Shown: in pieces, positions 14,300-58,854 of the stretch
Layout of the letters: the number at the start of each line of letters is the position of its first letter
Position numbering within the stretch: position 1 is the stretch's first letter
Made by a program: the position numbers and the translations under genes
NCBI GenBank assembly: GCA_963693365.1
Contig: CAVNZM010000013.1
Location: 4,492,722 to 4,556,721 of the forward strand
Source: Amoebidium appalachense
Taxonomy: Eukaryota > Protista > Ichthyosporea
Direction: 5' to 3'
Length of the DNA: 64,000 nt
Notes under the pieces: generated by a model
Told to the model about the DNA's origin: nothing
What the model saw: only the letters and a program-made list of their open reading frames with translations
Databases searched by the model: none

Positions 14300-23342
<9,043 letters not shown>

Positions 23343-25004: not shown

Positions 25005-25880
25005 TTGAGGTGTTATGTTTGCTTTTTGATGCACGGAAAATGTATGTCGGAAATGGTTGGTGGGATTGTGGAGCGAGAAAAGGTTTGGAATTCAACGGAA
25101 GTTGAAAAGTGGTCTGGCGTGTAACGATGACGATATAATGCTCCTGCGTCTTGGGAGGGGAGAGAGGAGGAGGAAGGGGGGGGGATAGGGAGGGGGGGGG
25201 GAGGGGGAGGGGAGGGTGTATCGATGGTGGTTGAGTAGGCGGGCAGCTGTGAGTGTGTGGGAGGGAGAGGGGGTGCGGAGACCGATGGTGGGAAGGGCGG
25301 GGGAAAGCGGGGCGGGGGGGGAGGGGGGAGGGGGATGGGAAGGGGAGGGGGAGGGGGGGGGAGGGGGGGGGGGGGGGGGGGGGGGGGCACAATAAGTTGC
25401 CACCCCCCTCTCCCTCCCCCCTTCCCCCAACCACCACCATCACCACGACCAGGCATGGGTATTGCATGTTGTTGCCTGTTTTGTCCTACCTCTCTACGCT
25501 TGACCCCTCCCACACGTCTTCTTTCTATACTTTCCCGCCTGCCCCGCAACACCCACGCAAACCACCTCCCCCCGCCACCACCACACGCGCAGTGCACTTG
25601 CACACACACAGCATCCACCATCACGCCCCCCCCCCCCCCCCCCCCCCCCCTTCTTCCTCTCCGCTCCCACACAAGCAGATACGAACTTCTCTCCATACCC
25701 TCCCCCCCGTCCCTCCCACCCCCCCACACCGACACACACACACAACACCCACAGTGCATCCCAGTGAACACACGTTCCATCCACCCGCCTCTAACTCAGC
25801 TTGTTCCCTTACCTCGAAACATACACAACACCTGCCTTTTTTAACCTATTTTATGTTTGCTTGTGCAGACCAACAGCAAC

Positions 25881-26476
25881 ATGGCTCAAGACGACCACAT
25901 TCCCGACTTTGCCACCCTGGCTATCCACGCCGATGATGACATGGAGAATGGAGTGATTGACATTGCACCTCCCCTGCACGTGAGCACCACGTTTAAATAC
26001 CCCAAAGACATCATGGAAACAGGTACATGCAACTGTTTTATTCTTGGGTGCAAAAAATGTTCTATTCTTGGTTTCATTTTTTTTTTTTTTTTTTAGAGGG
26101 GGGGGAGGGGGGGGGGGGGGGAGGTGGAGATAAAGTAAACACTCGGCTTTTTGTTTCACTATCTATCTTGTTACAGTTCTTAGCACTATTCTTGATATTT
26201 TTAATATCGCTGTTGTATTATACTTACTGTTGTTGTTGCTACAATTAAAATAGGATAGGGACGTTGGGTGGGGGTGGACATGCCTTTCCGCTCTCGTTTG
26301 AGAGCAATTGCAAGTAGCCACCCTGCCTGCCACCCTCCCCCCCCCCTCCCCCCCCCGCCCCCTGGGCCACCCTCGTTAGGTTAATGTTTTCTGTGTGTGC
26401 TCTTCTTTGCATCTCTGCACATGCTCTAAAAAGGAATTTGTACTTCAGAATTTAGAACACTGTCTAATCTTTCCCC

Positions 26477-26571
<95 letters not shown>

Positions 26572-27278
26572 ACTTTGAATACAGCCGTGAGGACCAGCCC
26601 ACCCGTCGGAGAGCAGAGAAGGTTCTTGGCCGTTTGGAAGCCGGAGAGAAAGGTGTGTGTGCACCTGTGTGTGTGTGTGGGTGTGGGTGGGTGGGGAAGG
26701 GGGAGGAGGGTGCTAGGTGGGTGGGTGGGTGGGGGGGGGGGGTGGCTGTTAACAAGGCCTTGAGAGAAGAAGTTAGCTGTACTGCTTTAGAGCAACAGAG
26801 CTTTGGATATCCGGGAAGAACTGGGAGGGCACCGGGGGGAGGGGGAGGGGGGGGGGGGGGGCAAGAGATTTGGACACCCATACATATGTCTAATACAGAT
26901 CACGATATATGTGTGGTACATACATCAATAGTGAGGCAGAAAGGGGAGTTGAAGGGAGTCTTCGAAGAGAGGAGAGAGTGGAACACAGTGATCTGGTACA
27001 CGTCTACCCGCTTTCCAGCAACACAAGTTTGGCAAGGTGGCCTTTTATTGTGCAAAGTAAAAGTGGGGCGCTGCGTGCATGCTTATCAACCAACCCGCAT
27101 GTATTCAAACAAACACACAGACAGACACAATAACACATAAACAAGCACACACCGAGAGATCGAGGGAGGAGAAACACACACACACACACTCACATCCACA
27201 CACATCCCTCCCCCCCGGACACAAACCCACACACCCACAAACCCCCCCCCCCCCCCCCCCCTAACTACCCCCCCCCCC

Positions 27279-27320
<42 letters not shown>

Positions 27321-27425
27321 CCCCCTATCTGTCCCCCCTCCCCCAACCCCCCCACACACACTCATAAACCCCACCCCCCCCTCCCCTTCCCCCCCACCCC
27401 TCCCCACACACACACGTACACACGA

Positions 27426-27461
<36 letters not shown>

Positions 27462-27977
27462 AGGGCGCTGTATCCTGTATGCGTCTGGTCTTGCTGCCAT
27501 TCAGGCCGTAGTTCTCCACGTGGCCCCCAAGAGGGTTGCATGCAGGGGGGGATACCATGGCTCTATTGGTGTCTTCAACCAGAACAAACTTGTACGTGCC
27601 CTCCCCCCCCCCCCCCCCTCCCCCCCCCCCCACCCCCTCCCCATGAATATGCATTTCATTATGTCTATCACATTATATCCCCCTCTCCCCTCCTTCAACC
27701 CCTTCGCCACCTGCATGAATAGCTTGGGCCCTCCTGAAAACAGGCTCTCTGATGATGCGTACTCGTTGTTTGTGCTTTGCCGTATGCATACGGTTGTCCG
27801 TCGTGAACTTTCGCGAATGTAAATATGTACCGGTTAAACGCGTTATTCTTCCATATCTCTCTCTCTCCCCCCCCCCCCCCCCCTCTCCCCCTCTTCCCCC
27901 CCCCCCCGCCCCCGTCCCCCTCCCCCGTTTCCACCCCCGAGGGCCTGCCCTATTTCCTCCCATGACTTCCATCCCCA

Positions 27978-28011
<34 letters not shown>

Positions 28012-28213
28012 ACAGGATGGGCTCTGTTTGTTATGCATACTCTTCATGTGTTTTTTGCACTGTTGCATTGTGTTGTCCGTCATGAGTGCGTACTTTGTAG
28101 TCTATTACTCTTTCTGATCTCTCCCCCCCTCCCCCCCCCCCCCCCCCCTTCCCGCCTCTTCTCCCCGCCCCTCTCCCCCCCCCCTGCCCGTGAACATCCA
28201 CTCACTCACTCGA

Positions 28214-28285
<72 letters not shown>

Positions 28286-29467
28286 ACAGACAGACATACA
28301 CCTCAATCACTCACTCAAATACTTAACTCACAAAACCCTTCCCGCTCCCCCCTTGACCCGCCCAAGTTCAGTTGATGCTGCTGTCTGAGTTGGAGCGTCG
28401 TATATACGCGGGCTAAGGGGTCGAAACTCAGACGCAATTGATGACTTGGGTCCTCCCTGAGGATGGGCTCTGCTTATGACGCATACTGTGCACATGGCTG
28501 ATGTTGCATACTTGAATGTTTGCCTTTGCATGTGTCCTGCACCATGCTTCTCGTCGTGTATGCGTACTTCGTACCTTTTTCCGCATTCAAACCCCCCCCC
28601 CCCCCCCCCATCACCCCCCCCCTCTCTCCCCCCCCCCCCATCCCCTTCCCCCCCTCTCCCCCTCCCCCCCTCAGGAAATGATTGATATTGATGATGAATA
28701 CCAACCCGGTGATCTCGTTTGGATCGAAACCCCTCGTAATGCATCGTGCGATGTCTACGGTAGGTGTCTCTGTTCATACTCCGCAAAAATGGGTTTTTTC
28801 TGGCTATCCCTACCCCCCCCCCCCCCCCCCCCGCCTCCCCTTCCCCCTCTCCCACCCCCGTCACCACCGCGGAGCTTAGGGACATACACACTCCTGTCGT
28901 TTTTTCTGTCTTCCCCCTCCTGTCTCGCTCTCTCTCCCCCCCCCCCCCCCCCCCCCCTCTCCCAAAAGACGGGCGACCCATACATGTTCAAGCCAAACAG
29001 TATCTGAGATGGGTTTCGTTAACGAGGTGAATGGGTGGAAACTCGGGTACTGTGGATGACGTGGCCCTCCCCTGAGGATGGGCTCTGCTTATTATGCATA
29101 CTCTTTATGTATGGTTTGCATTCTGCATCGTGTTATCCGTTGTTCTTGTATACTTCAAACTTTATGACGCATTCAATCCCCCCCCCCCCCCCCCCCCCCT
29201 TCACACACACAAAAACTCTTGTTCACTTCAACGCAGGTCCCCTCCTCCTCTCTCCCCCCCCCCCCCCCATTTTGTTTACTCACACGCATCAACACCCTAT
29301 TCATCCCCTTCATCCACTCCCCCCTCCCCCCTCCCCCCCCCCCCCCCCCTTCCCCCCTCCGTCAACGAAACACTAGCACACACTAACACCTGTACAGCTC
29401 CCCCCCCTCACCCCCATCCCACCCCTCCGCACATACATGTGAGTGCATGCAGGAACACTCACGGACA

Positions 29468-29508
<41 letters not shown>

Positions 29509-29583
29509 GACACACACACACACAAACACACACACGCGCGCGTGCGCGCACACACACACACACACGGACAGACACACACGCAC

Positions 29584-29653
<70 letters not shown>

Positions 29654-30844
29654 TCCGTCACTACAGTGAGAAGGCCCACGCTGCCGGGGCCAAGATAGCC
29701 GTCGACTCGACATTTGCCCCCCCTCCCCTCCAGTACCCCCTGCAGCACGGTGGGTGTTGATTGGCTAACAATCACACCGCATGTCTTGATTGGCCAATGA
29801 TCACACTGCCTTTCTTTGATGTTCATTGGGTCTGTGTACATTCTTTCTAAATATTAGCATTGGCTTTGTTGGTAGGTCAATTATCACACGCCTTAATCTA
29901 TTGGCTACTGATCATGCGTACACAGTTTCTGAACATTACCATATGGTTTGTTGATTTGTCATTTGTCACGCGATTGAAGCAACCACCGCTACTTCCATTT
30001 TAGCCGCTGACGCGAGCCACATCGTTGACGTCATTCTGTGCACAATTTCCATGAAGCCGTACGAGCTGAAGCTGGCTCTGTCGTATGTCGACATCGGCAT
30101 GTGACACAGTTTGATTGATTCTCTTGATTGGTGAGACACATTTGAGAAATGTGGCTCTCGGGCGGTCAGCGCCCAGACGCTAAAATGGGAGAAGCGGTGG
30201 TTGGTTTAAGTTGTCAATAAGCACACACATATTTGGTCAGCCAATAGACACATTTTACTAATACACAATTTGAAAAGTAGTATAAGTACATCGAGGACCT
30301 ATACTATTTGATGTGGTCAATTTTACCGTACCACTTTTTGGTTTAGTAGAAAAAAAGTATATCGCGAACAGCCGACCCGATCCCGGTGCGCATTTGTTGC
30401 GTTCACCCCAATCAATTCGATCTGGCAAAAAGATATACTTTACTTCCGAAGTATATCTTTTGGCCCTTTCATATGATCGATATACTTAAGTATATCGACT
30501 TTGAATATCTTTTTCGCGATCTTACCAGGTTTGACAGATCAACGATATACTTGTACTATACTTTTCAAAATGTATTATAGTAAACCGTGTCTGATCACCA
30601 AAACTTCAGTCTTTGGCTAATCACCATCCGTGCATTCTTTCGCAGTAGCACCATATCCTTTGTTAATTGGCCAGGTGTCACCCGTCTTCTATATCGGCCA
30701 AGGTTTACACTTGGCTATCTCTTGACACCCTTTCTGATGGGTCAGTTATTACGCTCTCTTTATGTGAATTCATTTCCTATTTATCTCCTGGATGAGTTGT
30801 AACATTTAATCCTGACACATACACACATACACGCGCGCGCGCGT

Positions 30845-30900
<56 letters not shown>

Positions 30901-31016
30901 CGACTATGTCATGCACTCCACGACCAAGTTCTTCATGGGTCACAGTGATGGTCTTGGTGGTGCTGTGATTGTCGACAATGAACAAGTACACCACGAGGTA
31001 TCCGCTCTCTCTCTCT

Positions 31017-31093
<77 letters not shown>

Positions 31094-31096
31094 TTG

Positions 31097-31130
<34 letters not shown>

Positions 31131-31229
31131 CCCCTCCCCCCCCCCCCCTCTCTCTCCCTCTCTCCCTCTAACACACTCTCACTCACTCACTCACATACAT
31201 ACGCATACACACATACACAGAAGCGCGCG

Positions 31230-31268
<39 letters not shown>

Positions 31269-31295
31269 GCACACACACATAGGCAAACGCGCGCG

Positions 31296-31326
<31 letters not shown>

Positions 31327-31456
31327 ATACACATCCCGTTACTTGGGGTCCTCCTCCTGAGGATGCTACATTCTCTTTTTGTGTCCTTCTTTATTTCTTC
31401 CACTTTTTCAACTTTTCCTTTCCTTTTTTTTTTTTTAGGGACCCGGAAGGGTTGTT

Positions 31457-31502
<46 letters not shown>

Positions 31503-33372
31503 AGCGCGTAAGCACAATCCTTGCATGCGTTTCTCCTATTGGCCCTTTCAGCAATTTTTAAGGAGACTCGGGGGATGGATTTTGGTTAAAAATTGGGGTT
31601 GCGCAACGGATTGAGATCGACCAAATTCCATAATTGATCCAGTCGACCAATTGATGCCGAACTGTCCGAAAGTTCAATTTGCACTATAAATCCCGCTTAA
31701 ATCCTGGACGATTGACCGCATAAAGTTTGGGAGAAAATGAAATTTCACTTAGAAAGTGAGGGGTATTTACCTAGTAAAATTTTTGTCCGGAGGAGTGGTA
31801 GGCTTCGGTTGAGGCACCCATCTTTTGCTTAGCATAAGCAAATATAGAGAGGGTATAATAAGACCTTACGAATATTTTTAATTAAAACTTTGTTATGTAA
31901 TCAACCCCCACTTTCTTAATAGGATTTTATTTTCAGGGCAAATATATGCGGTCATTCTCTCTGGATCTAGCGGCGAAACTTAGGCGGCTTGTAATCAAAA
32001 GCCCCAAAAGTGACAATTTTAGCCGGCTCACAGACTGGAATTTGATCGATTCCGATCGATTGGATCCCCCGATCACATTGCCGACAAACCATCCCCTAAG
32101 TCTCCTTAAAGGCTGCTTTTTAGACTGGTACCCATATTCTATGTGGTGTTTCTTAGGTCACGTGATTCTGAACCAATCATATTGCAGATGTTCCACCAGC
32201 GCACGTACATGGGCAACATGATTGGGAACCTGGAGTGCTGGCTGCTGCTGCGTAGCGTCAGGTATGGGTGTGTGGGGATTTTATGTGCACGTGCAAACAC
32301 ACGCTGACACACACACACATGCACACACACATGCACACACACACACACATACACGCACGCACTCGTGTCTAGATGTTGCGGGGGGACGGAGAAGGGGGGG
32401 GGGGGGGGGGGTTGGTGGAGGGGTGTGGGCTGGTGGGTGGGTGAGAAATCTATGTATATCTGAGTATGGGGGAGAGGTGGAAGGGGCCCCGGGGGGGGGG
32501 GGGGAGGGGGGGGAGGGGGGGGGGGGGGGGATGCTGCTGGCTGGTGGGTGTTCGTGCAACATATGTGGAAAATTTGGGATGGGATCGGTTTTTGTTTGTT
32601 TGTTTGTTCACTGGTAAAGATAGCAACTGACACGGATCTATTTTTAGGTCTCTGTCCCTTCGTGTCAACCAGCAGAGCAACACGGCAGAGAAACTGGCAA
32701 AGGCCCTCGAGGTACTGTGTGCACACACACACAGAGAGACGTGCATGCAGACACACGCAAACACAAGTACATGAACTTGCACACGCACACACACGTATGC
32801 ACACACACAACCACCATCATCGCGCACACACGCAGACACCCACATACCACTCCTTTTTTCCCTGACGTACATTTCATTTTCTACAACAACATACATTTTC
32901 GTGAATGCGGATTGTAGTTAATATTGAGACTGGTTTGGAATATGGACATATTGATTTGGAACATGGACCTATAAATCCCTATGGACCCATTAATTTGGAA
33001 TATGGACATATTGATTTGGAAGATGGACCTATAAATCCCTATGGACCTATTGATTTGGAATATGGACCTATTGTTCCTTTGTACTCGCATGCATATCAAT
33101 AAGAGCCAGCACCCTCCCCCCGATCCTCCTTCCCCCCCCCCCCCCCCCCCCCCATGTATTGGTTGGGAACCACGCGCGAGAGGTAAAAGAGTCGAAACCC
33201 ATGCTTTTGTGGAGGCATAGGAACCCCCCTGATGATGGGCTCTGTTCAAGTGTCTTCTGCCTGCACACTTAAAAAAAAACAACAATTGTTTGATTTTGGG
33301 ATCCCCCCTTTTGTGACGTTTTGTAGTTTGTCCTTTGGTGTTTCCTCCATGTTTTCCAACCCTCTAACGCAT

Positions 33373-33406
<34 letters not shown>

Positions 33407-33644
33407 GGTACCCCAGTAGTACTGAGACTTTTGCCACAATGCAAAATCATTTTCTCGCGATATTGGAGGATTACTTGAGATAAGCAACGGAAATATGACT
33501 CAATTTCCCGTTATTTTGCAGAGCCACCCCCGTGTTACCAAGGTGATGCACCCGTCTCTCCCCAGCCACCCGAATCACGAGGTTGCAAAACGCCAAATGA
33601 AGGGCTATGGTGGTGTTTTCGCCATTGAGGTACACCCCCCCCCC

Positions 33645-33676
<32 letters not shown>

Positions 33677-33800
33677 TGCTCCACACACACACACACAGAA
33701 AAGAAACAGAAGAAGAAGAAACGAAGAGAAAGAAAAGAAGAATGTACGAATAAGACTAGACTAGCAGAGGATGAAATAAAGAGTCCATGCCGTACGCGCG

Positions 33801-33857
<57 letters not shown>

Positions 33858-34096
33858 ACAAACACACACAAACACACGTGCACACGTGTACACGTGCACA
33901 CGACCGTTAACACATACTTATCCACTGAAGCAAAAAATGGAAAGGGCGAGAGAAAGAAGCGGCGGAACCCGGGCGGGGGGAGGGGGGAAGGGTGGGGGGG
34001 GGGGGGGAGGTGCTTCCACGATACTTTTTTGAAGGTTGTGATGACAATTAGTTTGCTAGTGAACGTCTTATCTGACTGTTGCCTATGCCCGTGTGT

Positions 34097-34195
<99 letters not shown>

Positions 34196-34933
34196 CTGGA
34201 GAGCCAGGAGATTGCTCTTGCCCTCCCCTTCAGGACAAAATACTTCCGCCCGGCTACCTCTCTTGGTACCCCCCCCCCCCCCAAAAAAAAAAAAAAATAG
34301 AAATAAAAAACAATAATAATAATAATAATGATAATAATAATAAAATCCCATCCCCTTATCACTGCCCCCCCCCCCCCCCCCCCCCACCCCCTCCCCCCTG
34401 GGTACATGTATTGAATGACTGCACACCACACCTCGCGATTTTACTCGTTTTTTTCCCTTTCTTTTGTTCACTCCTTTCTTTTACCTTTCAATCTCCCTGT
34501 AATCACTCCGCTGCTTCTACCTGGCTCCCCACCCGTTTCTTCTTTTGGTGGCCCTTATGACGATCTCCCCTTCATCCTTATTAGAACAAAGTATTGAATG
34601 AAAAGACATATATGACGATCTCCCCCTTCATCCTTATTAGAACAAAGTATTGAATGAAAAGACATATGGTACACACACAAAAGACCCATCACACGGTTTT
34701 CCTTTCCCCCCCACCCCCTCACCCCACCCCCTCCCCGCCCTTATTTTTCTTCCTATATCACGCATTTTTCGAGTGTCAAATGCTCACTTGACCTCCCACC
34801 AATCAACACGGGCCCATTCTAACCATATATGGCAGGTGGGGTGGAGTCTCTTGTGGACTACCGCTACCGCTGGGACAAGGGTGTCAGCAAGAACCTTCTG
34901 CGCCTGTCCATCGGCCTGGAGGTATGTGCACGT

Positions 34934-34986
<53 letters not shown>

Positions 34987-35182
34987 ACTGCACATGCGCG
35001 CAATCACACACATACACTCGTGCATATGTGTCTGCGGTCACAAATACCACAATACAAGCACACTTTGCGAATATACACACACGCACAAGCACGTGCAAGC
35101 ACACGCACATGCAAACTTGCACGCGCAAACACACGCGTGTGCGAAATCACACAGCACAAGCACGGTCACACACACACGCACG

Positions 35183-35244
<62 letters not shown>

Positions 35245-35390
35245 CACAGATACAAACACATACCCAAAACCGTATAACACTAGCACACACACGAGCACAC
35301 ACACACTCACACACACTCACACAAACACACAAACCACAAACACGAACATGCGGCTGTGTCCGGACACACACACACACACACACACACAGA

Positions 35391-35474
<84 letters not shown>

Positions 35475-35607
35475 GTGTGCTGAAAATATGCTTTTCCATC
35501 CACAGGCATATGAGGATCTTCTCCACGACCTCACCCAGGCTTTGGACGACTCCAAGCACCCCCCTCTGAAGTCGGTCCCCGCATCCTCAGCACCGGCAGA
35601 GAAATAG
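25881..35607 (+). CDS. PLP-dependent trans-sulfuration enzyme (Cys/Met metabolism family; cystathionine gamma-synthase/lyase-like), 12 exons, 380 aa
   Basis: Exons 25881-26022, 26569-26652, 27464-27591, 28675-28759, 29651-29749, 30897-30997, 32188-32261, 32648-32711, 33522-33629, 34196-34265, 34836-34921, 35506-35607 are all GT-AG and in phase (1143 nt). Motifs [44 protein letters not shown]-lysine motif [28 protein letters not shown]. Confidence 0.96.
27722..28120 (+). mobile_element. Two degraded 3' fragments of the poly-C-associated repeat family (27722-~27850 and 28014-~28120)
   Basis: GCTTGGGCCCTCCTGAAAACAGGCTCT..TGATGCGTACTC and AGGATGGGCTCTGTTTGTTATGCATACTC match the family core and tail. 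Confidence 0.65.
28355..28590 (+). mobile_element. Repeat family copy A (non-autonomous retroelement-like, abutting poly-C)
   Basis: Inverted homolog of 19723-19960. Starts after a C-run and ends GCATTCAA+A+C-run. Confidence 0.85.
28383..28471 (+). ncRNA. Candidate non-circularly permuted hammerhead ribozyme
   Basis: Strand 1: GTCTGAGT-T-GGAG (28383-28395). Strand 3: GGGGTC-GAAA-CTCAGAC (28417-28433). Strand 2: CTCC-CTGAGGA-TG-GGCTCT (28453-28471). All three stems can pair (III 8 bp, I 4 bp, II 6 bp with GU). Confidence 0.65.
28967..29177 (+). mobile_element. Repeat family copy B (diverged subfamily; hammerhead-like core partly decayed)
   Basis: CAGTATCTGAG/CTCGGGTACTG stem, GAAA at 29038-29041, CCC-CTGAGGA at 29069-29078, then TGGGCTCTGC. 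The cleavage triplet is GAT instead of GTT. Ends GCATTCAAT+C-run. Confidence 0.8.
29980..30203. mobile_element. MITE-like element, ~25-bp imperfect TIRs
   Basis: CAACCACCGCTACTTCCATTTTAGC ... GCTAAAATGGGAGAAGCGGTGGTTG; no clear TSD. Confidence 0.65.
30254..30584. mobile_element. MITE-like element, ~40-bp imperfect AT-rich TIRs with internal AGTATATC subrepeats
   Basis: TTTACTAATACACAATTTGAAAAGTAGTATAAGTACATCG ... CGATATACTTGTACTATACTTTTCAAAATGTATTATAGTAAA. Confidence 0.6.
31562..32105. mobile_element. Non-autonomous DNA transposon with TTAA TSD and GG...CC termini (Kolobok-like)
   Basis: TTAA|GGAGACTCGGGGGATGG...GATCGACCAAATTCCA at left and TGGAATTTGATCGAT...CCATCCCCTAAGTCTCC|TTAA at right. 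Confidence 0.75.
32935..33073. repeat. Minisatellite of 18/21-bp units with a 60-bp higher-order period
   Basis: TTGGAATATGGACATATTGAT / ATGGACCTATAAATCCCT units repeated. Confidence 0.9.
33156..33243 (+). ncRNA. Copy C: strongly diverged candidate permuted hammerhead with canonical CUGAUGA
   Basis: GTATTGGT-T-GGG (33156-33167); AGAGTC-GAAA-CCCATGC (33188-33204); CCC-CTGATGA-TG-GGCTCT (33226-33243). Directly follows a poly-C tract. Confidence 0.6.
34556..34665. repeat. ~55-bp perfect tandem duplication (intronic)
   Basis: TATGACGATCTCCCCTTCATCCTTATTAGAACAAAGTATTGAATGAAAAGACATA twice. Confidence 0.92.
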
Positions 35608-36283: not shown

Positions 36284-37224
36284 AAAAAAAAAAAAAAAGA
36301 ACGCAAACGTGCACAAACTGTACACACACATTCCGTGACATGCACGTCACGTCCATGCACATATACTGACACCACCACCGGCACCACGAGACGCATACGT
36401 ATACATACGTTATACGTACACAAACCGGACAAGCACGCGCACACACATGCACGGGCACACGCACGCACGCACGCACACCGGCACAGGTGCACGGTGTGGG
36501 TGGGCCCCCGACAGTGTCCACGCAATAAAAAGTGTATAAACCCCCATCGATTTCACAGTCTCTCATCATCCATTCACTGATCACAATGAGCTATGATATT
36601 ACGTAACGGAGCTATGCGCTTTGCATGACATTCATGCAATCATGTAGCCGCTTGAGCTCAACCGGCCCGGGGTGAAGAATTTCAGTTCCTAAACCCTACA
36701 TGTCTTTAATAAACGGCACATTCCCCCCCCTAAACTCTTAAGCATACCTTTTTCCCAATATTAATGTTAGCCTTGGCACATATACAACAGCTGCCACCAT
36801 ATCCTACACATAAATTTGTAAAAAAACCCTTCCGGGCGTTGATTTTTGGCTTCAAAAAATCTCCATTTTACAGCATTGAGGCTTGGGCCACGGAGTCGCT
36901 AATCTTATTAGCAAACGGTTACAAAATATCATTGACCGTTTCCGTTCCCGGTATTTTTAGCGTAAATTTTGTTTTTCGGATAAAGGAAGATATAGAATTC
37001 AATCCCTGTTCATTGACTTTTCCCCGGACTCCGACGTCAGGTCAGTTCACGTGTTACCGTCACTTTTTCCTAGCGTAATAGCGAAAAAACATTAATTGAA
37101 TTTATTGTCAACTACTCAAAAGCAAACTCCTGACAAACATAATTCTTCGCTATTTGACTACTGCCGAAATCCCTATTTTTTCTGTTTTTTTTGTCTTTTG
37201 CCTTTTTTTTTACCCGCATCAAAC

Positions 37225-38013
37225 ATGGGTGAGGGCTGCGACGCAGGGCCACTCGAGAATGCCTTCGGAACGGCAGGAGGGGTTGTCCTTGCTTTGTGCT
37301 TGGTGCCACAAATCTACCAAAATATGAAGACGAAATCGACAGATGATCTCTCATATGGCTGGCTAGGAATGTACACCCTAGGGCTAGTGTTCACCTTTGT
37401 ATACATGGTAATGATAGGGGCGCTTGTGGGGTGGATAGGCGTCGCGGTTGAGGTGTCCCTAGCCCTCTTTACGCTTTACTTGAAAGTCTACTATGAGAAT
37501 TTCTACCACAGAAAAAGGAACCATAACAACGATGCTGAAAAAGGAGGAGAAAAGAGTTCCCCGTGTGGGGATTCCCCACGCGAAAGCGTTAAGGCAGCTG
37601 ATGATAAATCACCTGCTTCACTGTTGGCCACGACGGCAATTCCAGTCGTTTCTCCGCAAGACAAGACGTTTTCCGTGAGGCTACCAGAAGATTATCACTC
37701 AAATGTAACACATGTTCTCGAGAAGACAGAAACATGCGTGGGCAACCATTTGAATTCTCTTGGGAAACCTGCGTTGTTTTCAAGCATCTGGTCATCCCTT
37801 GAAAATGGGGCAACTGGAGGAAGGAAGGAGGGAGTTGTCATCACGCACACACACAACGGAACATGCATCACTGAGTTTTCGTGGGACACAAACAGCGTAA
37901 AAGTTTCACTTACAGGGCAACTAGGCCAGGATTCCGCCTTTATTGACTGGCTAGTTTCCGGCCTGAGAGAGGCGGTGCTTGGAGAGAGTGGGAGTCACTC
38001 TGCAGCATGTTAG
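37225..38013 (+). CDS. Single PQ-loop (SemiSWEET-like 3-TM) protein with C-terminal soluble domain, 262 aa, intronless
   Basis: From ATG 37225: GTAGGVVLALCLVPQIYQNMKTKSTDDLSYGWLGMYTLG..YM..V..EV.L....LYLKVYYE is one PQ-loop triple-helix bundle. A polar linker and a ~100-aa alpha/beta-like tail follow. Confidence 0.88.
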   Translation: MGEGCDAGPLENAFGTAGGVVLALCLVPQIYQNMKTKSTDDLSYGWLGMYTLGLVFTFVYMVMIGALVGWIGVAVEVSLALFTLYLKVYYENFYHRKRNHNNDAEKGGEKSSPCGDSPRESVKAADDKSPASLLATTAIPVVSPQDKTFSVRLPEDYHSNVTHVLEKTETCVGNHLNSLGKPALFSSIWSSLENGATGGRKEGVVITHTHNGTCITEFSWDTNSVKVSLTGQLGQDSAFIDWLVSGLREAVLGESGSHSAAC

Positions 38014-41132: not shown

Positions 41133-41568
41133 GTGTGTGTGTGGGTATGTGTGCGTGTCACGGTGTGTGTGTGTGTGTGTGCGTGTGTGTGTGTGTGTGT
41201 TTGTGTGTGCGTGTGTGTGTGCGTGTGTGTGTGTGTGTGTGTGCACGTGTGTGTGTGTGTGCTTGTCACACAGTGTGTGAGTGTGTGTTTGTGTGTGCGT
41301 GCGCGCGAGCCCGTGTGTGTGCACGTGCTGGTGCGGGTGCGGGTGAGATAGTAGTACGGGTTTGGGCGCGCTTGCGCGTGCGCGTCATGCACGTGTATGT
41401 GCGTGTTCGTTTGTGTGTACGTGTGGGTGCTTGTGCGCTCTTTTGTGTGTGCATGTTTGTGTGTATAGGCGTGGGCGTGCGCGGTTATGCGGGCGTGTGT
41501 GCATGTGGGTGGGGTGTGCATTTTTTTTTTTTTTTTTTTTATTTTTTATTTTATTTTATCACGTTTTG

Positions 41569-41601
41569 TTCCCGGAGGCCTTTTCAGGCCCTCTAGGGAA
41601 A
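41569..41601 (-). other. 3'-terminal stem-loop of the LINE
   Basis: TTCCC-TA-GAGGGCC-TGAAAA-GGCCTC-C-GGGAA on the minus strand, just before the poly(A). 3' stem-loops are typical LINE RT-recognition signals. Confidence 0.6.
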
Positions 41602-41841
41602 CTACCGTCTACCACACAGCACCGACAGTACACTAGTTAAGGTGCTATCTATGAGTTCAGCTAAAACCATCCTTCACAACCTAACTATAAGTACACACTT
41701 TGCCCAGGGCTACTACCCCAGCCACGCCGGCAGGAGGCTCCAGTCCTCCCCTCCATTCAAAAACCTAGCAATAAACGTTAACCGAGGGCTCTCATTGGTC
41801 GATCTACAGTATTGGGAAGTCCTAGGTGTTGTGTATAATAT

Positions 41842-44800
41842 TTACGGTGGGTATGGGTGGATGATGGGGTGTGGTGGTGGTGGTGGTGGGGGGTTGCTGC
41901 CTAACATTATGTGTTGGTGTACGTATGTTGTGGCGATGTTTTTGTGGACTAAAAGGTGGGTTTTACAGGGCACACCGGGTCTGTGGGTGTTCCGGCATTC
42001 AGAACAGGCCGGCCGGGTGTGTGTGGGGGGTGTATTTGTTGGTTTTTTGGGTTTTTGGAGAGCCATACTTTTCTTTCTACGGGTGGTGGGTATATGGTGG
42101 TGTTTTTGCATTTTAGGGTGGGTGGGGGGGAGTGTTGTGTTCCGTGGGTGCCAAATTTTTGCAAAGAAAAAGGATTGCAACTCTACTGTGATTTTTCCTA
42201 AGATGGCCCGGGTGGTGGTCTTGGTGGTGCCGGTGGCTGCAAGTAGTGGGCCCACCGATCGTGGGCAGAATCCCCGTTCGACCCACTTGGTGTCTTCGGG
42301 GTCAGGTGGGTCACCGTTGCCTCCTATCCAGTTTATCCATGCACATTGGTCTACCACCGTGGCTGCCGTATGGTGGTGCTGTGCCGTGGGGGGGGGGGTG
42401 TTTGGATGACGAGTGTGCAGGACGTTGTGGATGCAGGCTGTGATGGCGGTGGTCAGGGTGGGGACTTCCCCGGCATGGGCCGGGCAGGCCCAGAGGTGGG
42501 TGGTGGTCTCAGGGTGCTGGCTGCACCGGGGGCATGTGGGCTGTGTAACGACGGTGGGGTGATCTCGGTGTAGCCGTGCCATGGTAGGCAGGGTGCCCAT
42601 GGCCAGGGACAGGCTACGAGTGTTTCCTCTGACTGCCCCGATGGTTGCCTGTGTGGGCCCCTTGTTGAGCTTGAGGGGGTTCCGTTCGGCTGGGAGCAGT
42701 CTGGGGTCGGCTAGTATGGACATAGCCTTGGTCTTGCCGGCCATGTCGGTGAGGAAGTCCTTGTTCAACCGGTTCAGTGTACCGGGAATGTTGCCGGGGA
42801 TACGGTGGCCTTGTAGTCGTAGGAAGTATTTCCCCCCCCCCCCGGGGCCGGAGGTAGGGGGGGGGGAGGGGAGGACTCTTCCTGCATTGGCTGCCTTGTC
42901 TGCCTCGTTATTCCGTTGACCGTACCGTTTGGTGTTGGATTGGTGCCCCTTCACCCACGATACCTGTACAGAGCCTGGTTGCCGGAGAGAGAGTTGGTCT
43001 CGTACGTGAGCCCATTCCACTATGTGGGGGAACTTTAGCTTGCGTCGAGGGGGTGTGGTGGGGTCTATATTTGCCGTCCATCGGTCGACTACTCCGAGGT
43101 TATCGAGCTTGATGTGGATGGGGGTGGTGGTGGGGGTGAGCAGGAGGGCTAGTAGTACCCCTGTGAGTTCGGCTTGGGTGGATGATAGGGCCGTATGGAG
43201 CCTGGTCTTGGCCGTCACTGGAGGTGCTTTCCGGTCCGGGGTATCCAGTGCCGCCCCGGCTCCGGCCTGGGCTATCCTCCTGCCCGGGTGGATGAGGCTG
43301 CCGTCCGTATAAACGGTGATCGGTTGGTCTGGGGGGATCAGGGTGATTTGCTGCTGCCACTCGTCATAGGTGGCCTGGGGCACCAAGTCGGTGTAGGTGA
43401 GCCTACGGGGAGTGGGTGGGCTCGGCAGGTCAGCCGGGTGGGCCGTGCACTTGTGTCCTGGTGGTGACCCTACCGGTGGTGGCTGCTGGGGGGGGGGTGG
43501 GCCGGGGAGGTCCCCCGGTAAGGGTGTGGCTTCCTCGTTGGCTTGCAGGTGGAGCATCTGGGGTGATGCCTGTTGGTGGGGGGGAAGATGCCGCCGGAAA
43601 TGGTGTATCTTCCTCCACTGCTCGGCCGGATCGGAGCCATCCTTCAGTGCGATGACTTGGTAGATGTCGATACTGTCGGTGTTGATGAAGTCCTTGTGGT
43701 ACTTCGGGACTACCATGTGGGTGGTGATTCGGGTCTTGAAGGCCACGTAGGGGTCTGCCCGTATCACCTCCACAGCACGGGTCCACCCCACACACTGCTT
43801 GTTGTGGGTGTGATTATCGGCTGGGGGCTCAGGGGGCTCGTATTTGCTGTTGGTGCTGTCGGTGTTAGAGTCCTCTGAGTCGTCGGAGTCGTCGCTGGGC
43901 CCCGTCGACTCCGATTCTGGCTCCGTGTCTAACCCTTCCCCCTCTCCGTCTGCGTACCCGGGGTTGGGGGAGAGGGTGGCCGGGGTGTAGGCTAGGTTCC
44001 ATGGGGAGTGGCCGTATTTGCAGTCACCAGGGCAAAAGCGGAAATGGGCTGTTCCATGTGGGTCGTTCCACGTGGGTCGGTGCCATCTCAGCCCCTCCTC
44101 CTCTGTGTTGTCCCGTAGATGGGCTATTTTGACCCAAGCCTCCCCGTTGTGGGTGGTGTGGGCCACCACCTGGCTGAGTTCGTATTGCCCGTTCTTGACT
44201 ATTTCCACCACGAATGCACCGACGGGGTGGTTTGGCACGAGGTCAATGGTGTGGTGGGTGTGTGGTCTGGGTGCTGGCCGTAGTTTGTCTGCGATGGGGA
44301 TGGCCCCCTTGATGATGGACCTGTACCACTGTGTAGCTCCCGGGTGTAGTAGGTCTGGGGGGTGGGGCAGTTCGGGGAACGCCCGGAACACCCCCGGCCG
44401 TACCATGGTGTCCTCCACCGTGTAGAGTTGACGGGGGTGTGTGTGGGGGCCGATGTGGGCCGCAAAGGTGTGGTCCGGGAAAACGGTGTTGATAGGGGTG
44501 CTGGTTGTTGTTGCTGCTTCCCCTCCTTCTCCTTGGGGGGAGGGGGGGTGGGGTGGGGGTGCTTGTGTTTTTTGGGGGAGGGGTTTCCCCAATACTCAGG
44601 TGCCGCTCGTGAAGGATCCCCGTGATATGGGCCCAATAGTTGTGGAGCTGCTTTCCCCCTAGCCTGTAAAGTTTGGCTGGGGGTGCTTGCAGGGGTGGGT
44701 AGGGTAGGCCTGTCGCGTGTTGCTGCTGCCAGGCTCGGTACCGGACCACGTCCCCTGCTGGTCCTGGTGTTTCCAGCAGGGCACACAGCTCCGTAACCAT

Positions 44801-47800
44801 GGTGCTGGCTGCTGATTCGACGATGCTGGCCAGTCCCCCTAGAGTGGGATGGTGTAGCAGCCCGGACGGGGTGCTCCGGTGGAAACCACACTTCCGACGG
44901 AGTAGGTCTCTCCACTTGCTGTCGATTGCCTGCATGGTGGTGTTGCTGATGACTGACCCTTTGAGGAGGAAGAGGATGGCCGGGGCCACCACACTGTTGG
45001 CTACGTAGATCACTTGGCTGGGTGCCAGCATTTTACGGGCTAGTATGGTGGTGGCCCGTAATGTCAGCTGCATGGCCTTCCCATCGTTGGGCCGGGTGTG
45101 TCGTTGGAGGGTGATGTTGACCCCTAGCACTCTGATGTTTGCATCGGGGAGCTCGATCTGAATGGGTAGGGGTGGTGCTCCCGGGGATTTGCGGTACTGC
45201 ATGGGGGCCACTGTTGCCCGTGTTGGGGTACCACGGGCGAGGACTGAAAACTTGTCTGGGTGTGGTTCCAAGTCATGGTAATAAAAAAAGGGGGCAGATA
45301 AATCGAGAGTTTGCTGGATGCTCTCCTTGTTGGGGCCAAACCATGTTGTGTCGTCGGCGAAAGCTACAGACGTCACACACGGGGGTGTTTGTGCCGGTGT
45401 GTGGTGCTGTGTCTGTGGGGGTAGGTGGAAAGTGTACCCCTTGCCGTGCCTTTTGATGGCTGTTAAAACTGGATCGTAGAAAATAATCCACAGAATGGGG
45501 GAGAGGACAGCCCCTTGGGCCAGGCCGTTTTCAACAGGGAAAGACTCAGTGTGCCCCTGGTCTGTGCACACCGTGGCCGTACGACTGTGCCACATGTGCC
45601 GGAGGAGGGTGATTAGCTGGGGGTCTGTGCCCAGGCGGGTGAGCCCCAGTTCCACCGAGGGCCAAGACACCGTGTCATATGCCCTCTTAATGTCCTGTTG
45701 GACGATCCATAGTTCCTGGTCGTGGTCTATGGCATCCTCTATCGTCTCTCGGATGATAGCCAGCGCCCCGTCGATACCCGGGCCCGGCACGAACCCAAAA
45801 TTCCCCCCCGGGAGGAGGGTGGGGTACTGCCGGAAGATCGAGAGTAGGCGCTGGTTGATGACCGATTCTAGCAGCTTCCGTGCCGTTTCCAAGAGTGCTA
45901 TCGGTCGGGTTTTGTCGAAGTCACCTTCCCATTCCCCTTTCGGTAGGGGATGGATGGTGTGGTGCAGCCATGACCTCGGTGTGGTCCCCGTGGCCAGACA
46001 TCCGTTGATGATATGTAGGAGCCATGCTAGCCCCTTTGGCCCCAGGTGTTGGAAGTATTCGTACTGGATTTCCGTTGGGCCGGGGGCCTTCCCCCCCTGT
46101 CGGCTTTGGACGATCTGTTGGAGCTCGTCGTGGGTGGCCGGGTGCATTATAGACCCTAATGGGGAGTCTTCGGGGGGGATCGGTCGATAGATGTCGGCCC
46201 ACATTGGGTCGGCGAGCATCTCCTCGATGTGTGGGTTCCTGCGGGCCGTCCACCGGTGATAAGTTTCACGAATGACGGGCTCCGTGTCAGCCCACTCCGT
46301 GAGGTACTCAGTGCCCGTTGGGGTGACGTGCTTGACTAACGTAGCCGAGACGTTCACACTCCCCCGGTCTAAAATGCTGCTTAGTGCTCGCCGGAGTTCG
46401 TCCACCATACGCTTGCACCGTGCTTCTGCTGCTGCTGTTGCCCGTAACCAAAGGAGTTTTTGCCGTTTCCTTCGGAGTTGGGACCTGTATAGTTGTAGTT
46501 GCTCCCGCATGGTTGCCTCCCACTCCTCCCACTGCCTCCCTGTCTGAGACAGGTGGGCTGCTGGGGGGGTGGGGTGCTGCTGCAGGGTGGGTGACCCGTG
46601 CCGCGCCTGCTGGCCAGGGTTGCACTCTGCTGCTGTGGGCCGTTGCGGCTGCGTGGGTGTGGTCTGTAGCTGTTGGTTGCCCGTGGGTGGCCCTGGCAGG
46701 GTCTGCAGGCGGGGTGGCCCCTGCTTTGGCTGCCGGTGTGGGCTGCCTGCTTGGGCTTCAGCCTGCGGCTGCTGCTGCTGGCTTGGTTGCTCCTGTTGGT
46801 GCTGTCGGCTGGGTGGCCCGTGCTGGGCCTGCCGGCCGGGGCTGCAATCTGCTGCTGCATGCAGCTGCTGCAGTGTGGGTGTGATTTGTTGCTGCTGGCC
46901 GGGTAGCCCATGCAGGGCCTGCAGGCTGGGCGGCCCCTGCTGTGGCTGCCGGTGTGGGCTGCCTGCTAGGGCTGCAGCCTGAGGCTGCTGCTGCTGGCTT
47001 GGTGGCTCCTGTTGGTACTGTCGGCTGGGGGGGCCGTGCTGGGCCGGCCGGCCGGGGCTGCACACTGCTGCTGCAGGCAGCTGCTGCAGTGTGGGTGGGG
47101 TCGGTTGCTGCTGGCTGGGTGGCCCCTGCTGTGGCTGCCGGTGTGGGCTGCCTGCTGGGGCTGCAGCCTGAGGCTGCTGCTGCTGGCTTGGAGGCTCCTG
47201 TTCGTGCTGTCGGCTGGGTGGCCCGTGCTGGGCCGGCCGGCCGGGGCTGCGATCATGCGGCAGCTGGTGCAGTGGGGGTGTGGTCGGTTGCTGCTGGCTG
47301 GGTGGCCTTGGCGGGGCCTGCAGGCTGGGTGGCCCCTGCTGTGACTGCCGGTGTGGGCTGCCTGCTGGGGCTGCAGCCCCTGGCTGCTGCTGCTCGCTTG
47401 GTGGCTCCTGTTTGTGCCGTCGGCTGGGTGGCCCGCGCTGGGCCGGCCGGCCGGGGCTGCAATCTGCTGCTGCAGGCAGCCACTGCAGTGTGGGTGTGGT
47501 CGTTTGCTGCTGGCTGGGTGACCCTGGCAGGGCCTGCAGGCTGGGTGGCCCTTACTGTGGCTGCCGTTGTGGGCTGCTTGTTGGGACTACAGCCTGAATC
47601 TGCTGCTGCCAGCTGGGTGCCTCCTGCTGGTGCTGTCGGCTGGGTGACCCGTGCTGGGCCTGCCGGCCGGGGTTACCCTCCGCTTCTGCAGGCAGCTGCT
47701 GCAGTGTGGGTGTGGTCGGTTGCTGCTGGCTGGGTTGTTCTGGCAGGGCCTGCAGGCTGGGTGGCCCCTGCTGTGGCTGCAGGTGTGGGCTGCCTGCTGG

Positions 47801-50800
47801 GTCTGCAGCCTGAGGCTGCTGTTGCTGGCGGGGTGGCTCCTGTTGGTGCTGTCGGCTGGGTGGCCCGTGCTGGGCCGGCCGGCCGGGGCTGCACGCCGCC
47901 GCTGCAGGCAGCTGCTGCAGTGTAGGTGTGGTCGGTTGTTGCTGGCTGGGTGGCCCTGGCAGGGCCTGCAGGCTGGGTGGCCCCTGCTGTGGCTGCCGGT
48001 GAGGGCTGCCTGCTGGGGCTACAGCCTGCGGCGGCTGCTGCTGGCTTGGTGGCTCCTGTTGGTACTGTCGGCTGGGTGGCCCGTGCTGGGCCGGCCGGCC
48101 GGGGCTGCAATCTACTACTGTAGGCCGCCGCTGCATTGTGGGTGTGGTCGGTTGCTGCTGGCTGGGTGACCCTGGCAGGGCCTGCAGGCTGGGTGGCCCC
48201 TGCTGTGGCTGCCGGTGTGGGCTGCCTGCTGGGGCTACAGCCTGAGGCTGCTGCTGCTGGCTGGGTGGCTCCTGTTGGTTGGGTGGCCCGTGCTGGGCCT
48301 GCCGGCCGGGGCTGCACGCTGCTGCTGCAGGCGGCTGCTGCAGTGTGGGTGTGGTCGGTTGTTGCTGGCTGGGTGGCCCTGGCAGGGCCTGCAGGCTGGG
48401 TGGCCCCTGCTGAGGCTGCCGGTGTGGGCTCCCTGCTGGGGCTGCCGCCTGAGGCTGCTGCTGCTGGTTTGGCGGCTCCTGTCGGTGCTGTCGGCTGGAT
48501 GGCCCGTCCTGGGCCTGCCGGCTGGGGTTGCAGTCTGCTACCTGCTGCTGCTGCCGTGTGGGTGTGGTCGGTTGCTGCTGGCTGGGTTGTTCTGGCAGGG
48601 CCTGCAGGCTGGGTGGCCCCTGCTGTGGCTGCAGGTGTGGGCTGCCTGCTGGGTCTGCAGCCTGAGGCTGCTGTTGCTGGCGGGGTGGCTCCTGTTGGTG
48701 CTGTCGGCTGGGTGGCCCGTGCTGGGCCGGCCAGCCGGGGCTGCACGCCGCCGCTGCAGGCAGCTGCTGCAGTGTAGGTGTAGTCGGTTGGTGCTGGCTG
48801 GGTGGCCCTGGCAGGGCCTGCAGGCTGGGTGGCCCCTGCTGTGGCTGCCGGTGAGGGCTGCCTGCTGGGGCTACAGCCTGCGGCGGCTGCTGCTGGCTTG
48901 GTGGCTCCTGTTTGTACTGTCGGCTGGGTGGCCCGTGCTGGGCCGGCCGGCCGGGGCTGCAATCTGCTGCTGCAGGCAGCTGCTGCAGTGTAGATGTGAT
49001 CGGTTGCTGCTGGCTGGGTGGCCCATGCAGGGCCTTCAGGCTGGGTGGCCCCTGTTGTGGGCTGCTGGCGGGGGCTGCAGCCTGAGGCTGCTGTTGCTGG
49101 CTTGGTGGCTCCTGTTGGTGCTGGCGACTGGGTGGCCCATGCTGGTCCTGCCGGCCGGGGCTGTCTGCTGGGGCAGCGGCAGGCCGATGCAGCAAAGTGG
49201 GTGTGGGTTGGTGCTGCTGGGTGGGGCTGCAATCTGCTGCTGCAGGCAGTTGCTGCCGGGTGGGTGTGGTTTGTTGCTGCTGGCCGGGTGGCCCATGCAG
49301 GCCCTGCAGGCTGGGTGGCCCCTGCGGTGGCTGCCGGTGTGGGCTGCCTGCTAGGGCTGCAACCTGAGGCTCCTGCTGCTGGCGTGGTGGCTCCTGTTGG
49401 TACTGTCGGCTGGGTGGGCCGTGCTGGGCCGGCCGGCCGGGGCTGCAAACTGCTGCTGCAGGCAGCTGCTGCAGTGTGGGTGGGGTCGGTTGCTGCTGGT
49501 TGGGTGGCTCTGGCAGGGCCTGCAGGCTGGGTGGCCCCTGCTGTGGCTGCCGGTGTGGGCTGCCGGCAGGGTCTGCAGCCTGCGGCTGCTGCTGCTGGCT
49601 TGGTGGCTCCTGTTCGTGCTGTCGGCTGGGTGGCCCGTGCTGGGCCGTCCGGCCGGGGCTACAATCTGCTGCCGCAGGCAGCTGGTGCAGTGTGGGTGTG
49701 GTCGGTTGCTGCTGGCTGGGTGGCCCAGGCGGGGCCTGCAGGGTGGGTGGCCCCTGCTGTGACTGCCGGTGTGGGCTGCCTGCTGGGGCTGCAGCCTTTG
49801 GCTGCTGCTGCTGGCTTGGTGGCTCCTGTTTGTGCTGTCGGCTGGGTGGCTCGTGTTGGGCCGGCCGGCCGGAGCTGCAATCTGCTACTGTAGGCCGCCG
49901 CTGCATTGTGGGTGTGGTCGGTTGCTGCTGGCTGGGTGACCCTGGCAGGGCCTGCAGGCTGGGTGGCCCCTGCTGTGGCTGCCGGTGTGGGCTGCCTGCT
50001 GGGGCTTCAGCCTGAGGCTGCTGCTGCTGGCTGGGTGGCTCCTGTTGGTTGGGTGGCCCGTGCTGGGCCTGCCGGCCGGGGCTGCACGCTGCTGCTGCAG
50101 GCGGCTGCTGCAGTGTGGGTGTGGTCGGTTGTTGCTGGCTGGGTGGCCCTGGCAGGGCCTGCAGGCTGGGTGGCCCCTGCTGTGGCTGCCGGTGTGGGCT
50201 GCCTGCTGGGGCTGCAGCCTGCGGCTGCTGCTGCTGGCTTGGTGGCTCCTGTTGGTGCTGTCGGCTGGGTGGCCCGTGCTGGGCCGGCCGGCCGGGGCTG
50301 CAATCTGCTGCTGCAGGCAGCTGCTGCAGTGTAGGTGTGATCGGTTGCTGCTGTCTAGGTGGCCCATGCAGGGCCTGCAGGCTGGGTGGCCCCTGCTGTG
50401 GCTGCCGTTGTGGGCTGCCGGCAGGGGCTTCAGCCTGAGGCTGCTGCTGCTGGCTTGGTGGCTCCTGTTGGTGCTGTCGACTGGGTGGCCCATGCTGGGC
50501 CTGCCTGTTGGGGCTGCCTGCTGGGCCAGCGGCAGGCTGGTGCAGCAAAGTGGGTGTGGGTTGGTGCTGCTGGGTGGATCCGGGGTCCCCCTCCTCCTGA
50601 TACCACCCCGTCTGGGACGGGTGTGCCTGGGGGGGAGGGGGGGGGGTGTCCTGGGGGGTGGGGGGGATGCCCGGGGGGTTGTTGGGGTCGGCTGTGTACA
50701 GTGGGATGATGGGACTGCTTGTTGGGGGTACCGGTGGGGGGGGGCTCCGGAGGGGGAGGGGGTGCTGGCCAGCCATATTGGACGGCCAGCTCCTTGGCCC

Positions 50801-51218
50801 TCTCCCAGAAACCCTGTGGATTTGCCGCCCGGTCCGTTGCATTGAGGAGCCGGTGTAGCTCCGCGTGCTCGTTGTCCTCCGGGAAGACCTTCGTCGGTTT
50901 TGACGTGGACTTCTCTGGTTTGCTCTTGGTCCGGCCCACTGTGGTTTTTGCCACCGAGAGAATGGTGGCGGCCATGTACTCCCATCTCCCTTCCACCTCC
51001 GCCTGGGTAGGGGTGGTGGTTGGGGGGGACGTGAAGGCTGCCTCCGTGCCGGTGGTAAAACGTGCCCAGTCCTCCTGTGTGGTGTTCGGTTTCAGCTGGA
51101 GTCTCGGTGTGGGTTGGTTTCGGGTTGGCCCTGGTCCCTGGCCCGGCAGGTTAGGATGGGGCCCAGTTTCGCACCAGGCCAGGTGGTGGTCGGTGTGAAG
51201 ATCCGGTAATTCCGTGAC
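41842..51218 (-). pseudogene. LINE ORF2 polyprotein (disrupted: two homopolymer frameshifts, one in-frame TAA)
   Basis: RT motifs KAPGPT, TRPIALLETARK, QDIKRAYDTV, GLAQGAVLSP, FADD (~45350-45361). RNase H motifs YTDGS (~43297-43311), SSTQAEL, LDN, WVKGH, NNEAD. Zn finger CPRC..ETTTHLWAC. Frame changes at ~50740 and ~44540-44590. ORFs 47552-50842 and 44243-47065 share a frame across TAA 47552-47554. Confidence 0.92.
46560..50575 (-). repeat. GC-rich coding minisatellite, ~216-bp (72-aa) unit, ~18 copies, inside LINE ORF2
   Basis: Unit QQLPAAADCSPGRPAQHGPPSRQHQQEPPSQQQQPQAAAPAGSPHRQPQQGPPSLQALPGPPSQQQPTTPTL, repeated with in-frame indels. Confidence 0.95.
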
Positions 51219-51583
51219 TGGGTGGGGTGTGCATGTGCTTCTGTTTTTGTTTGTGTTTTTGGGAGAAGGACTCGGAGGCACATTGCACAGCCAAATTTCC
51301 CGCGCAACTAAATAGAAATGTTGACAATTTTTCATTCAATACCCAGCCAACCAGTGACCCGACCACCGTTGAACAGCACGTGTATGTAACCAATAATAGT
51401 GTGAAACACGAGCTCAAATAAATATATAGTATAGACACGAATTGTAAAACGATACTAACCTGGAGACAAGGGTCATTTTTCATTACGTACAAGCATCAGT
51501 GGGCAATAAGCACTAATTGTTGTATCTATCTGTATAACTAACTTTGATCAAGAGCTCATATACTACTACAATATTTTCCAGTT

Positions 51584-52482: not shown

Positions 52483-52518
<36 letters not shown>

Positions 52519-58675: not shown

Positions 58676-58854
58676 TGCACACAATTTTCCGACTCAGTCA
58701 ACAACAAAACACGAAAAGTACAAGCAACTTCATAAATACCGTGAACAGCGAGCCTGTGTTCAGTTTCTGCACCCGCACCGGTTCAAACATACATACATAA
58801 ATACTGACGCAAACAGACACAAACGTCACACATATACGCCGGTGCACGTGGAAA

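Follow-up and report, generated by a model that had tools for sequence, protein, structure and literature searches.

High-copy repeats inserted in poly-C carry a hammerhead variant with a non-circular block order and predicted self-cleavage

Hammerhead RNAs of type SGC, in which the cleavage-site block (S) is followed by the GAAA block (G) and then by the CUGANGA block (C), were described by Eckert 2023 (PMC10085705). In the accessible text of that work, the type was found only outside the genomes of known organisms, the CUGANGA block was assumed to be uninterruptible, and a geometric strain was described when the interaction helix is joined directly to stem III. Among the Penelope-like elements, Naiads and the majority of Chlamys have no canonical hammerhead according to the accessible text of Craig 2021 (PMC8557442), which notes eight "half cores" ("HHR_half_core"). 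No fold is given there for the half cores of Naiads, which come from animals and prefer (TA)n, and (C)n and (CA)n are listed as Chlamys targets. The hammerheads of Penelope pLTRs and of retrozymes are, as far as the available texts describe them, of type I with a circular block order, retrozymes being organized in tandem arrays (PMC4209133; 10.64898/2026.07.22.740005). No description of a genomic hammerhead that is non-circularly permuted or core-opened was found in the open literature, the Eckert supplements aside.

Here, a 64-kb stretch of DNA (the window) was analyzed that contains several copies of a dispersed repeat with a hammerhead of S-G-C order (Table 1). The architecture resembles that of the type-SGC RNA HRIMA-1 and its variants, as the available text presents them, in the order of the blocks, the presence of all conserved core bases, two or more pseudoknots and an additional helix that links stem I to stem II. 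It differs in the S-G linker (about 3 nt in HRIMA-1 and type SGC, 18–21 nt here), in block C, which is assumed to be uninterrupted in type SGC but probably split by two helices (X and Y) here, and in its occurrence as a high-copy genomic repeat. A probable core-opened S-G-C layout and the targeting of simple repeats are shared with Naiad elements of octopus and ostracod in the published consensi inspected by eye; unlike the (TA)n-associated Naiads of animals, however, the repeats sit in (C)n and without a linked ORF. Poly-C insertion and a probably non-animal host recall the (C)n-targeting Chlamys and their non-autonomous partners. In one set of five tails, four, from (C)n-targeting Chlamys consensi, end in CAA/TAA-CCCC, resembling the window copies, but no sequence link between the two was established with these consensi. 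A hammerhead at a retroelement terminus, palindromes and mostly single truncated copies are also known, from the same partial sources, for Penelope pLTR hammerheads and non-LTR retrozymes (PMC4209133; 10.64898/2026.07.22.740005). Retrozymes are defined by units in tandem that each bear a hammerhead of type I, and the repeats described here do not have this arrangement. Judged from its sequence, the feature is real and is a new hammerhead variant, for which self-cleavage is predicted.

Table 1. Repeat copies, hammerhead elements and host gene in the 64-kb window.
Feature	Position	Strand	Remarks
Copy A'	19723..20122	-	Sole complete window copy: ~125-nt leader, ribozyme, ~110-nt tail, poly-C tracts on both sides
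Copy A	28355..28591	+	5'-truncated exactly at G10.1, lacking helix X 5' strand and hairpin Y
Copy A context		sense	Poly-C starts at 28592; intron 27592-28674
Copy B	28964..29177	+	Truncation inside hairpin Y; two mutated core positions; intron 28759-29649, sense
Copy B, upstream stem II strand (probable)	28975-80	+	
Copy B'	14766..14901	-	Truncated twin of B, starting just after GAAA, poly-C in front
Copy C	33155..33373	+	Third family; truncated before block S, lacking upstream stem II strand; intron 32712-33515, sense
Degenerate relative	28006..28140	+	Deeper truncation: helix X 3' strand and tail only
A, block S	28383..28395	+	Stem III strand, GUU, stem I strand; predicted cut after 28391
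A, block G	28418..28433	+	Stem II strand, GAAA, stem III strand
A, block C	28453..28478	+	Stem I strand, CUGAGGA (28457-63), U, helix X 3' strand (28465-78)
A, upstream stem II strand (probable)	28355..28359	+	G10.1 onward; pairs 28422-28418, 5 Watson-Crick pairs
A, stem I-II interaction helix (putative), 5' strand	28361..28368	+	Pairs 28450-28443; 7 pairs at P 0.82–1.0
A, kink-turn-like element	28372..28378 with 28434-28443	+	Junction of interaction helix and stem III; imperfect
Palindrome, 10 nt, S-G linker	28399..28408	+	B 29016-25; C 33173-78
A', hammerhead core	19835..19958	-	Probable stem II strand 19958-54, predicted cut after 19922, GAAA 19890-87, CUGAGGA 19856-50
A', helix X 3' strand	19848-35	-	
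A', helix X 5' strand	19984..19995	-	Pairs 19848-19846 and 19842-19835, just past CUGAGGA-U
A', hairpin Y	19959..19983	-	10 bp, ends right before G10.1; P 0.84–1.0
Host gene (P0070)	25863..35604	+	Cys/Met-metabolism PLP enzyme, 12 exons; introns contain A, B and C

Self-comparison of the window showed that A and A' are 94% identical over 284 nt. The likeness among families A, B and C was about 65–78%, family C having mainly the core in common with the other two. The preliminary description had delimited the element at 28355..28590, which locates copy A correctly, but the full element is longer, as A' spans 20122-19723. The window copies have varied internal 5' starts and one common 3' end, CAA or CAT directly before poly-C. 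They lack a poly-A tail, and insertion in simple repeats and 5' truncation are both present. Neither tandem copies (self-comparison of the window) nor partial tandem (pLTR) or inverted arrangements of the window's copies were detected. The leader of A' was compared seven times with the tail without significant likeness, bar one borderline result, and hence no pLTR is claimed. More degenerate fragments resembling the C block or the tail were observed at 27700-27860 (+), 31330-31370 (+), 11790-11745 (-), 17740-17600 (-) and 61441-61386 (-).

Both strands of the window were scanned with a descriptor in which the three hammerhead blocks could follow one another in any of the six possible orders. 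It matched A, A' and C only, all as S-G-C, while 300 block-wise dinucleotide shuffles gave one SGC match and five matches of any order. The three segments that had been reported in the order site, GAAA, CUGANGA were present in A, A', B and C, with GUU at 28389-91 (A), 19924-22 of the minus strand (A') and 33162-64 (C), GAAA starting at 28423, 19890, 29038 and 33194, and CUGA(G/U)GA starting at 28457, 19856, 29072 and 33229 (A, A', B and C, respectively). The proposed non-circular order 1-3-2 was borne out and equals type SGC as defined in the accessible text of Eckert 2023 (PMC10085705). Pairing of stems I and III despite divergence was also upheld by the pairs counted: stem III has seven plus a U-A in A, 11 in B and six of seven in C, and stem I has four, three and three. 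The conserved CUGANGA, GAAA and NUH occur in A, A' and C, and in B through the majority letters. Stems I, II and III adjoin the core with G10.1-C11.1 and A15.1-U16.1, the stem II partner of C being missing. A cut directly after GUU is predicted from these elements in A, A' and C (after 33164 in the latter). Stem I is short, at 3–4 bp, and GUU is a weaker hammerhead cleavage site, both of which speak against the reading.

When Rfam was searched at E up to 10, A' gave no match and A/B gave nine weak ones, none of them a hammerhead; this was to be expected, since the block order is permuted. With the whole window as query, low-complexity noise was found among the 150 of 386 matches listed. An 18-base motif scan of viral and metagenome sequence yielded 4 viral and 54 metagenome loci, and on inspection none of these 58 has the block layout, so they were taken as chance matches.

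A different result was obtained for stem II, which the preliminary description had formed with the downstream GGCUCU. That pairing includes three G-U among six pairs in A; in B, the letter that most copies have at 29033 costs another pair, so that majority B keeps four. The upstream strand that begins with G10.1 forms five Watson-Crick pairs in A and A', starting with G10.1-C11.1, and six in majority B, and window B pairs at this place as well; its stacking in A amounts to -11.2 vs -9.2 kcal/mol for the downstream partner. The stem II revised in this way shows one compensatory change, C-G in window B and U-A in majority B. These results suggested that stem II is better made by the upstream strand and that the downstream GGCUCU was probably a mis-assignment. 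The type-SGC rule that the stem II strand follows CUGANGA probably does not describe the repeats, as the upstream strand pairs better and covaries. Given this better upstream pairing, the "1–2 nt insertion" noted earlier after CUGANGA is probably the exit of the chain into an extra helix.

In A', helices X and Y lie between A9 and G10.1 and, according to the model, probably split the CUGANGA block. Nested folding of A' gave P 0.89–1.0 for the eight outer pairs of helix X and P 0.2–0.3 for the three inner ones; the region of hairpin Y (19945-20000) had a z of -3.3. For families A and B, the loose-end consensus from sequencing-run contigs again contains the core of hairpin Y, and both helices are whole in A' only. 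The A' region folded at -67.6 kcal/mol, whereas shuffles reached -51.7 +/- 4.2 kcal/mol and 1 of 200 did as well; X, Y and stem III all had P about 1. A descriptor of the core-opened layout matched A and A' and none of 500 shuffles. In the nested minimum-energy fold of A', the upstream strand of stem II takes a different partner, and the active fold is favoured on stacking terms only, -75.2 vs -67.6, before pseudoknot penalties. In C, whose upstream part is absent from the available sequence, the helix X 3' strand can pair locally instead (P 0.97). A kissing-hairpin model, in which the C block stays intact inside a local helix, fitted C but was rejected, having P 0 in A.

An imperfect kink-turn-like element was called in A next to stem III by comparison with the kink-turn consensus; such a motif was not evident in B or C. 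The helix adjoining it had been regarded as an extension of stem III. Its pairing is present, but its more plausible role is to bridge stems I and II, as suggested for A by analogy with the RNAs in the accessible text of Eckert 2023 (PMC10085705) and with the Naiad tails inspected.

Stems I, II and III each show a single double change, which in stems I and III is a compensatory exchange between A-U and G-C. The covariation is thin: on the structure of the preliminary description, with three families only, the observed score was reached by 23 of 500 shuffles. Window B carries A for U at 29009 and G for C at 29037. The reported loss of the conserved U is true of this copy, but it is private, since 99.7% of the depth in sequencing run X1 restores both the U at 29009 and the C at 29037. 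Hence, the damage is confined to copy B and the family core is intact. Window B further differs from the majority at 29033, 29065 and 29068; the ribozyme of copy C matches the majority throughout. In family A, variable sites (positions varying at 3% or more) numbered 2 among the 124 bases of the ribozyme, where both fall in linkers, and 11 among the 112 bases of the tail (p = 0.008), and a recent expansion could contribute to the low variation. Position 33229, the first C of CUGAUGA in copy C, is T in 45% of the depth of run X17 (5 contigs) and in under 1% in three DNA runs, possibly reflecting a core-mutant copy enriched in stable RNA.

Part of A was present in 20 of the 24 sequencing runs. 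In X1 the summed depth over A reached 1.4–2.1 million, vs 31 on a single-copy exon; B reached about 1 million and the GAAA block of C 0.12 million. Summed contig depth is not a copy number, and allowing for a ~31-fold overcount by overlapping contigs we infer thousands of genome copies of A, about a thousand of B and over a hundred of C. The depth climbs from 5' to 3' along the repeats, partly as an edge effect, and the loose ends run into poly-C. The truncation, the common 3' end and the depth pattern show the pattern of target-primed retrotransposition in which the RNA corresponds to the ribozyme strand. The earlier proposal of a self-cleaving-type RNA within a retroelement gained support in its retroelement setting from abundance, 5' truncation and poly-C insertion, cleavage itself being a prediction. 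Neither a GIY-YIG endonuclease nor a Penelope reverse transcriptase was found among the 9 of 54 long window ORFs scanned.

Copies A, B and C all lie in sense orientation in introns of the host gene, for which splicing across two introns was observed in X17. None of the 24 runs is recorded as RNA; X17 was taken to be RNA on the sole ground of a single exon-joining contig, and it gives no strand, ends or cleavage. As the sense strands of the introns are C-rich, the orientation of the copies may merely follow the target. Within 25863-35604, introns frequently end in long (CA)n or poly-C just before the acceptor AG, and the window as a whole is rich in introns, with many tracts of poly-C and (CA)n. 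Other features observed in it were a LINE with reverse transcriptase, RNase H and a poly-A end (41520-51335, minus strand), with a roughly 4-kb tandem repeat inserted at about 46557-50577, and two copies (51585-53294 and 57538-59193) of two similar, short open frames, rich in Ala and arranged head to head with common spacer motifs, which looks like a duplicated divergent gene pair. Additionally, three single-exon membrane-protein frames were present (3583-4779, +; 7841-9169, -; 37096-38013, +), one weakly class C GPCR 7tm_3-like, one PQ-loop and one without a Pfam match. Short tandem arrays at 32934-33073, 54215-54447 and 9336-9519 have no relation to the ribozyme repeats.

Tails of Naiad, Chlamys and Physarum elements were read by eye from the consensi in the supplement of PMC8557442, names being taken from file order. 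The Naiad tails covered were 15 of 54, and six of them plus the tagged Naiad-3_Dst gave no resolved layout. Near the 3' ends of Naiad_Ovul, Naiad-4_Dst and the untagged Naiad_Obim, the core-opened layout X-Y-stem II-S-G-C was read, and a clean kink-turn stands at the stem III end in the octopus elements Naiad_Obim and Naiad_Ovul. The tagged Naiad_Esco is S-G-C with an ambiguous stem II. No core-opened or permuted layout was seen in the ten Chlamys and Physarum tails. In the same supplement (File S5), four of the eight tagged Naiads, Naiad_Parc, Naiad-3_Nbra, Naiad_Hpol and Naiad_Smim, appear by eye to contain complete C-S-G hammerheads with an intact C block inside the interaction helix; only two CSG sequences, both from metagenomes, were known in the accessible text of Eckert 2023 (PMC10085705). 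Compared with the Naiad relatives in these consensi, poly-C targeting and probably a non-animal host are new. Two housekeeping queries, run in weak, word-based searches of 5.8 billion clusters, matched nothing but the organism's own proteins, one of them in a source labelled eukprot, which suggests a thinly sampled and probably non-animal eukaryote as host.

Considering the sequences, pairings, copy abundance, truncation and insertion context observed, the poly-C-inserted, 5'-truncated families are probably the 3' ends of Penelope-like retroelements with a core-opened hammerhead predicted to cut after GUU. The copies may belong to short non-autonomous elements or be the ends of long autonomous ones. 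We consider it quite unlikely that the fold is instead an ordinary type SGC with an intact CUGANGA, a 2-nt insertion and stem II from the downstream GGCUCU, although for truncated copies such as C this may be the sole option. That stem has six consecutive pairs in A and C, two of its positions showing one-sided U-G/U-A changes, and in C the local helix (P 0.97) encloses the C block as in HRIMA-1. Nevertheless, the four pairs left in majority B compare poorly with the covarying upstream strand, in A a gap of 2 nt separates the start of the C block from the base of a rod of some 24 bp (P about 1), and helix X takes part of the downstream bases in A'.

Activity restricted to dimers or tandems, with the base domain of one unit docking on the loop of another, would spare host pre-mRNAs with single intronic copies, and A, B and C are indeed in sense within introns of a spliced gene. 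The palindrome that each of the three S-G linkers contains (predicted gain on dimerization 11–13 kcal/mol), the absence of a clear kink in B, C and Naiad-4_Dst, and the dimeric hammerheads described for Penelope-like elements in the available text of PMC4209133 agree with such a mode. This is unlikely, however, as the palindrome is weakened in A', the octopus Naiads combine a clean kink-turn with a 1-nt linker and no palindrome, and tandem copies are absent from the window. The presence in the window of the LINE with reverse transcriptase and RNase H would fit an inactive or structural relic, in which such a LINE moves a short repeat and the motif serves for priming or protein binding. Yet that LINE, the one examined, ends in poly-A and has no significant 3' sequence in common with the repeats, and the catalytic positions persist across the three diverged families, majority letters included, so that a relic appears very unlikely.

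For the probable core-opened hammerhead of a Penelope-like element, the three-dimensional fold, the cleavage, the mobiliser and the role can be inferred as follows. The loop of the stem III hairpin would present the stem I and stem II strands, CUGANGA coming after the hairpin. The chain would exit after A9 into helix X, made with its upstream partner, pass through hairpin Y and re-enter at G10.1 to give stem II, and the interaction helix would join the far ends of stems I and II, for which a sharp bend would be needed (kink-turn-like in A). A hammerhead folded in this way would cut in cis after GUU, about 200 nt from the element 3' end, and the cut would trim read-through or tandem transcripts to unit length, or open and close a circle, a role proposed for Penelope hammerheads in the accessible parts of PMC8557442 and PMC4209133. 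A Penelope-type reverse transcriptase would then prime at poly-C. Because 5' truncation takes the upstream strands first, most copies would be silenced, and truncation as an off-switch would explain the tolerance of sense copies inside introns.

A wider claim is put forward tentatively, with doubt somewhat outweighing confidence: that the active topology lies beyond the published six orders, combining scrambled blocks, a core opened at A9/G10.1 and a kinked helix joining stems I and II, and that it is an ancient module of N-terminal-endonuclease Penelope-like elements present in thousands of copies in a poly-C-targeting non-animal lineage. The helices that enter the core are a possible new handle for engineered RNA switches. 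As standard ribozyme searches miss a permuted, core-opened layout, genomic ribozyme counts may be too low. A construct of 170 nt would make the role of self-cleavage in Penelope-like retrotransposition testable.
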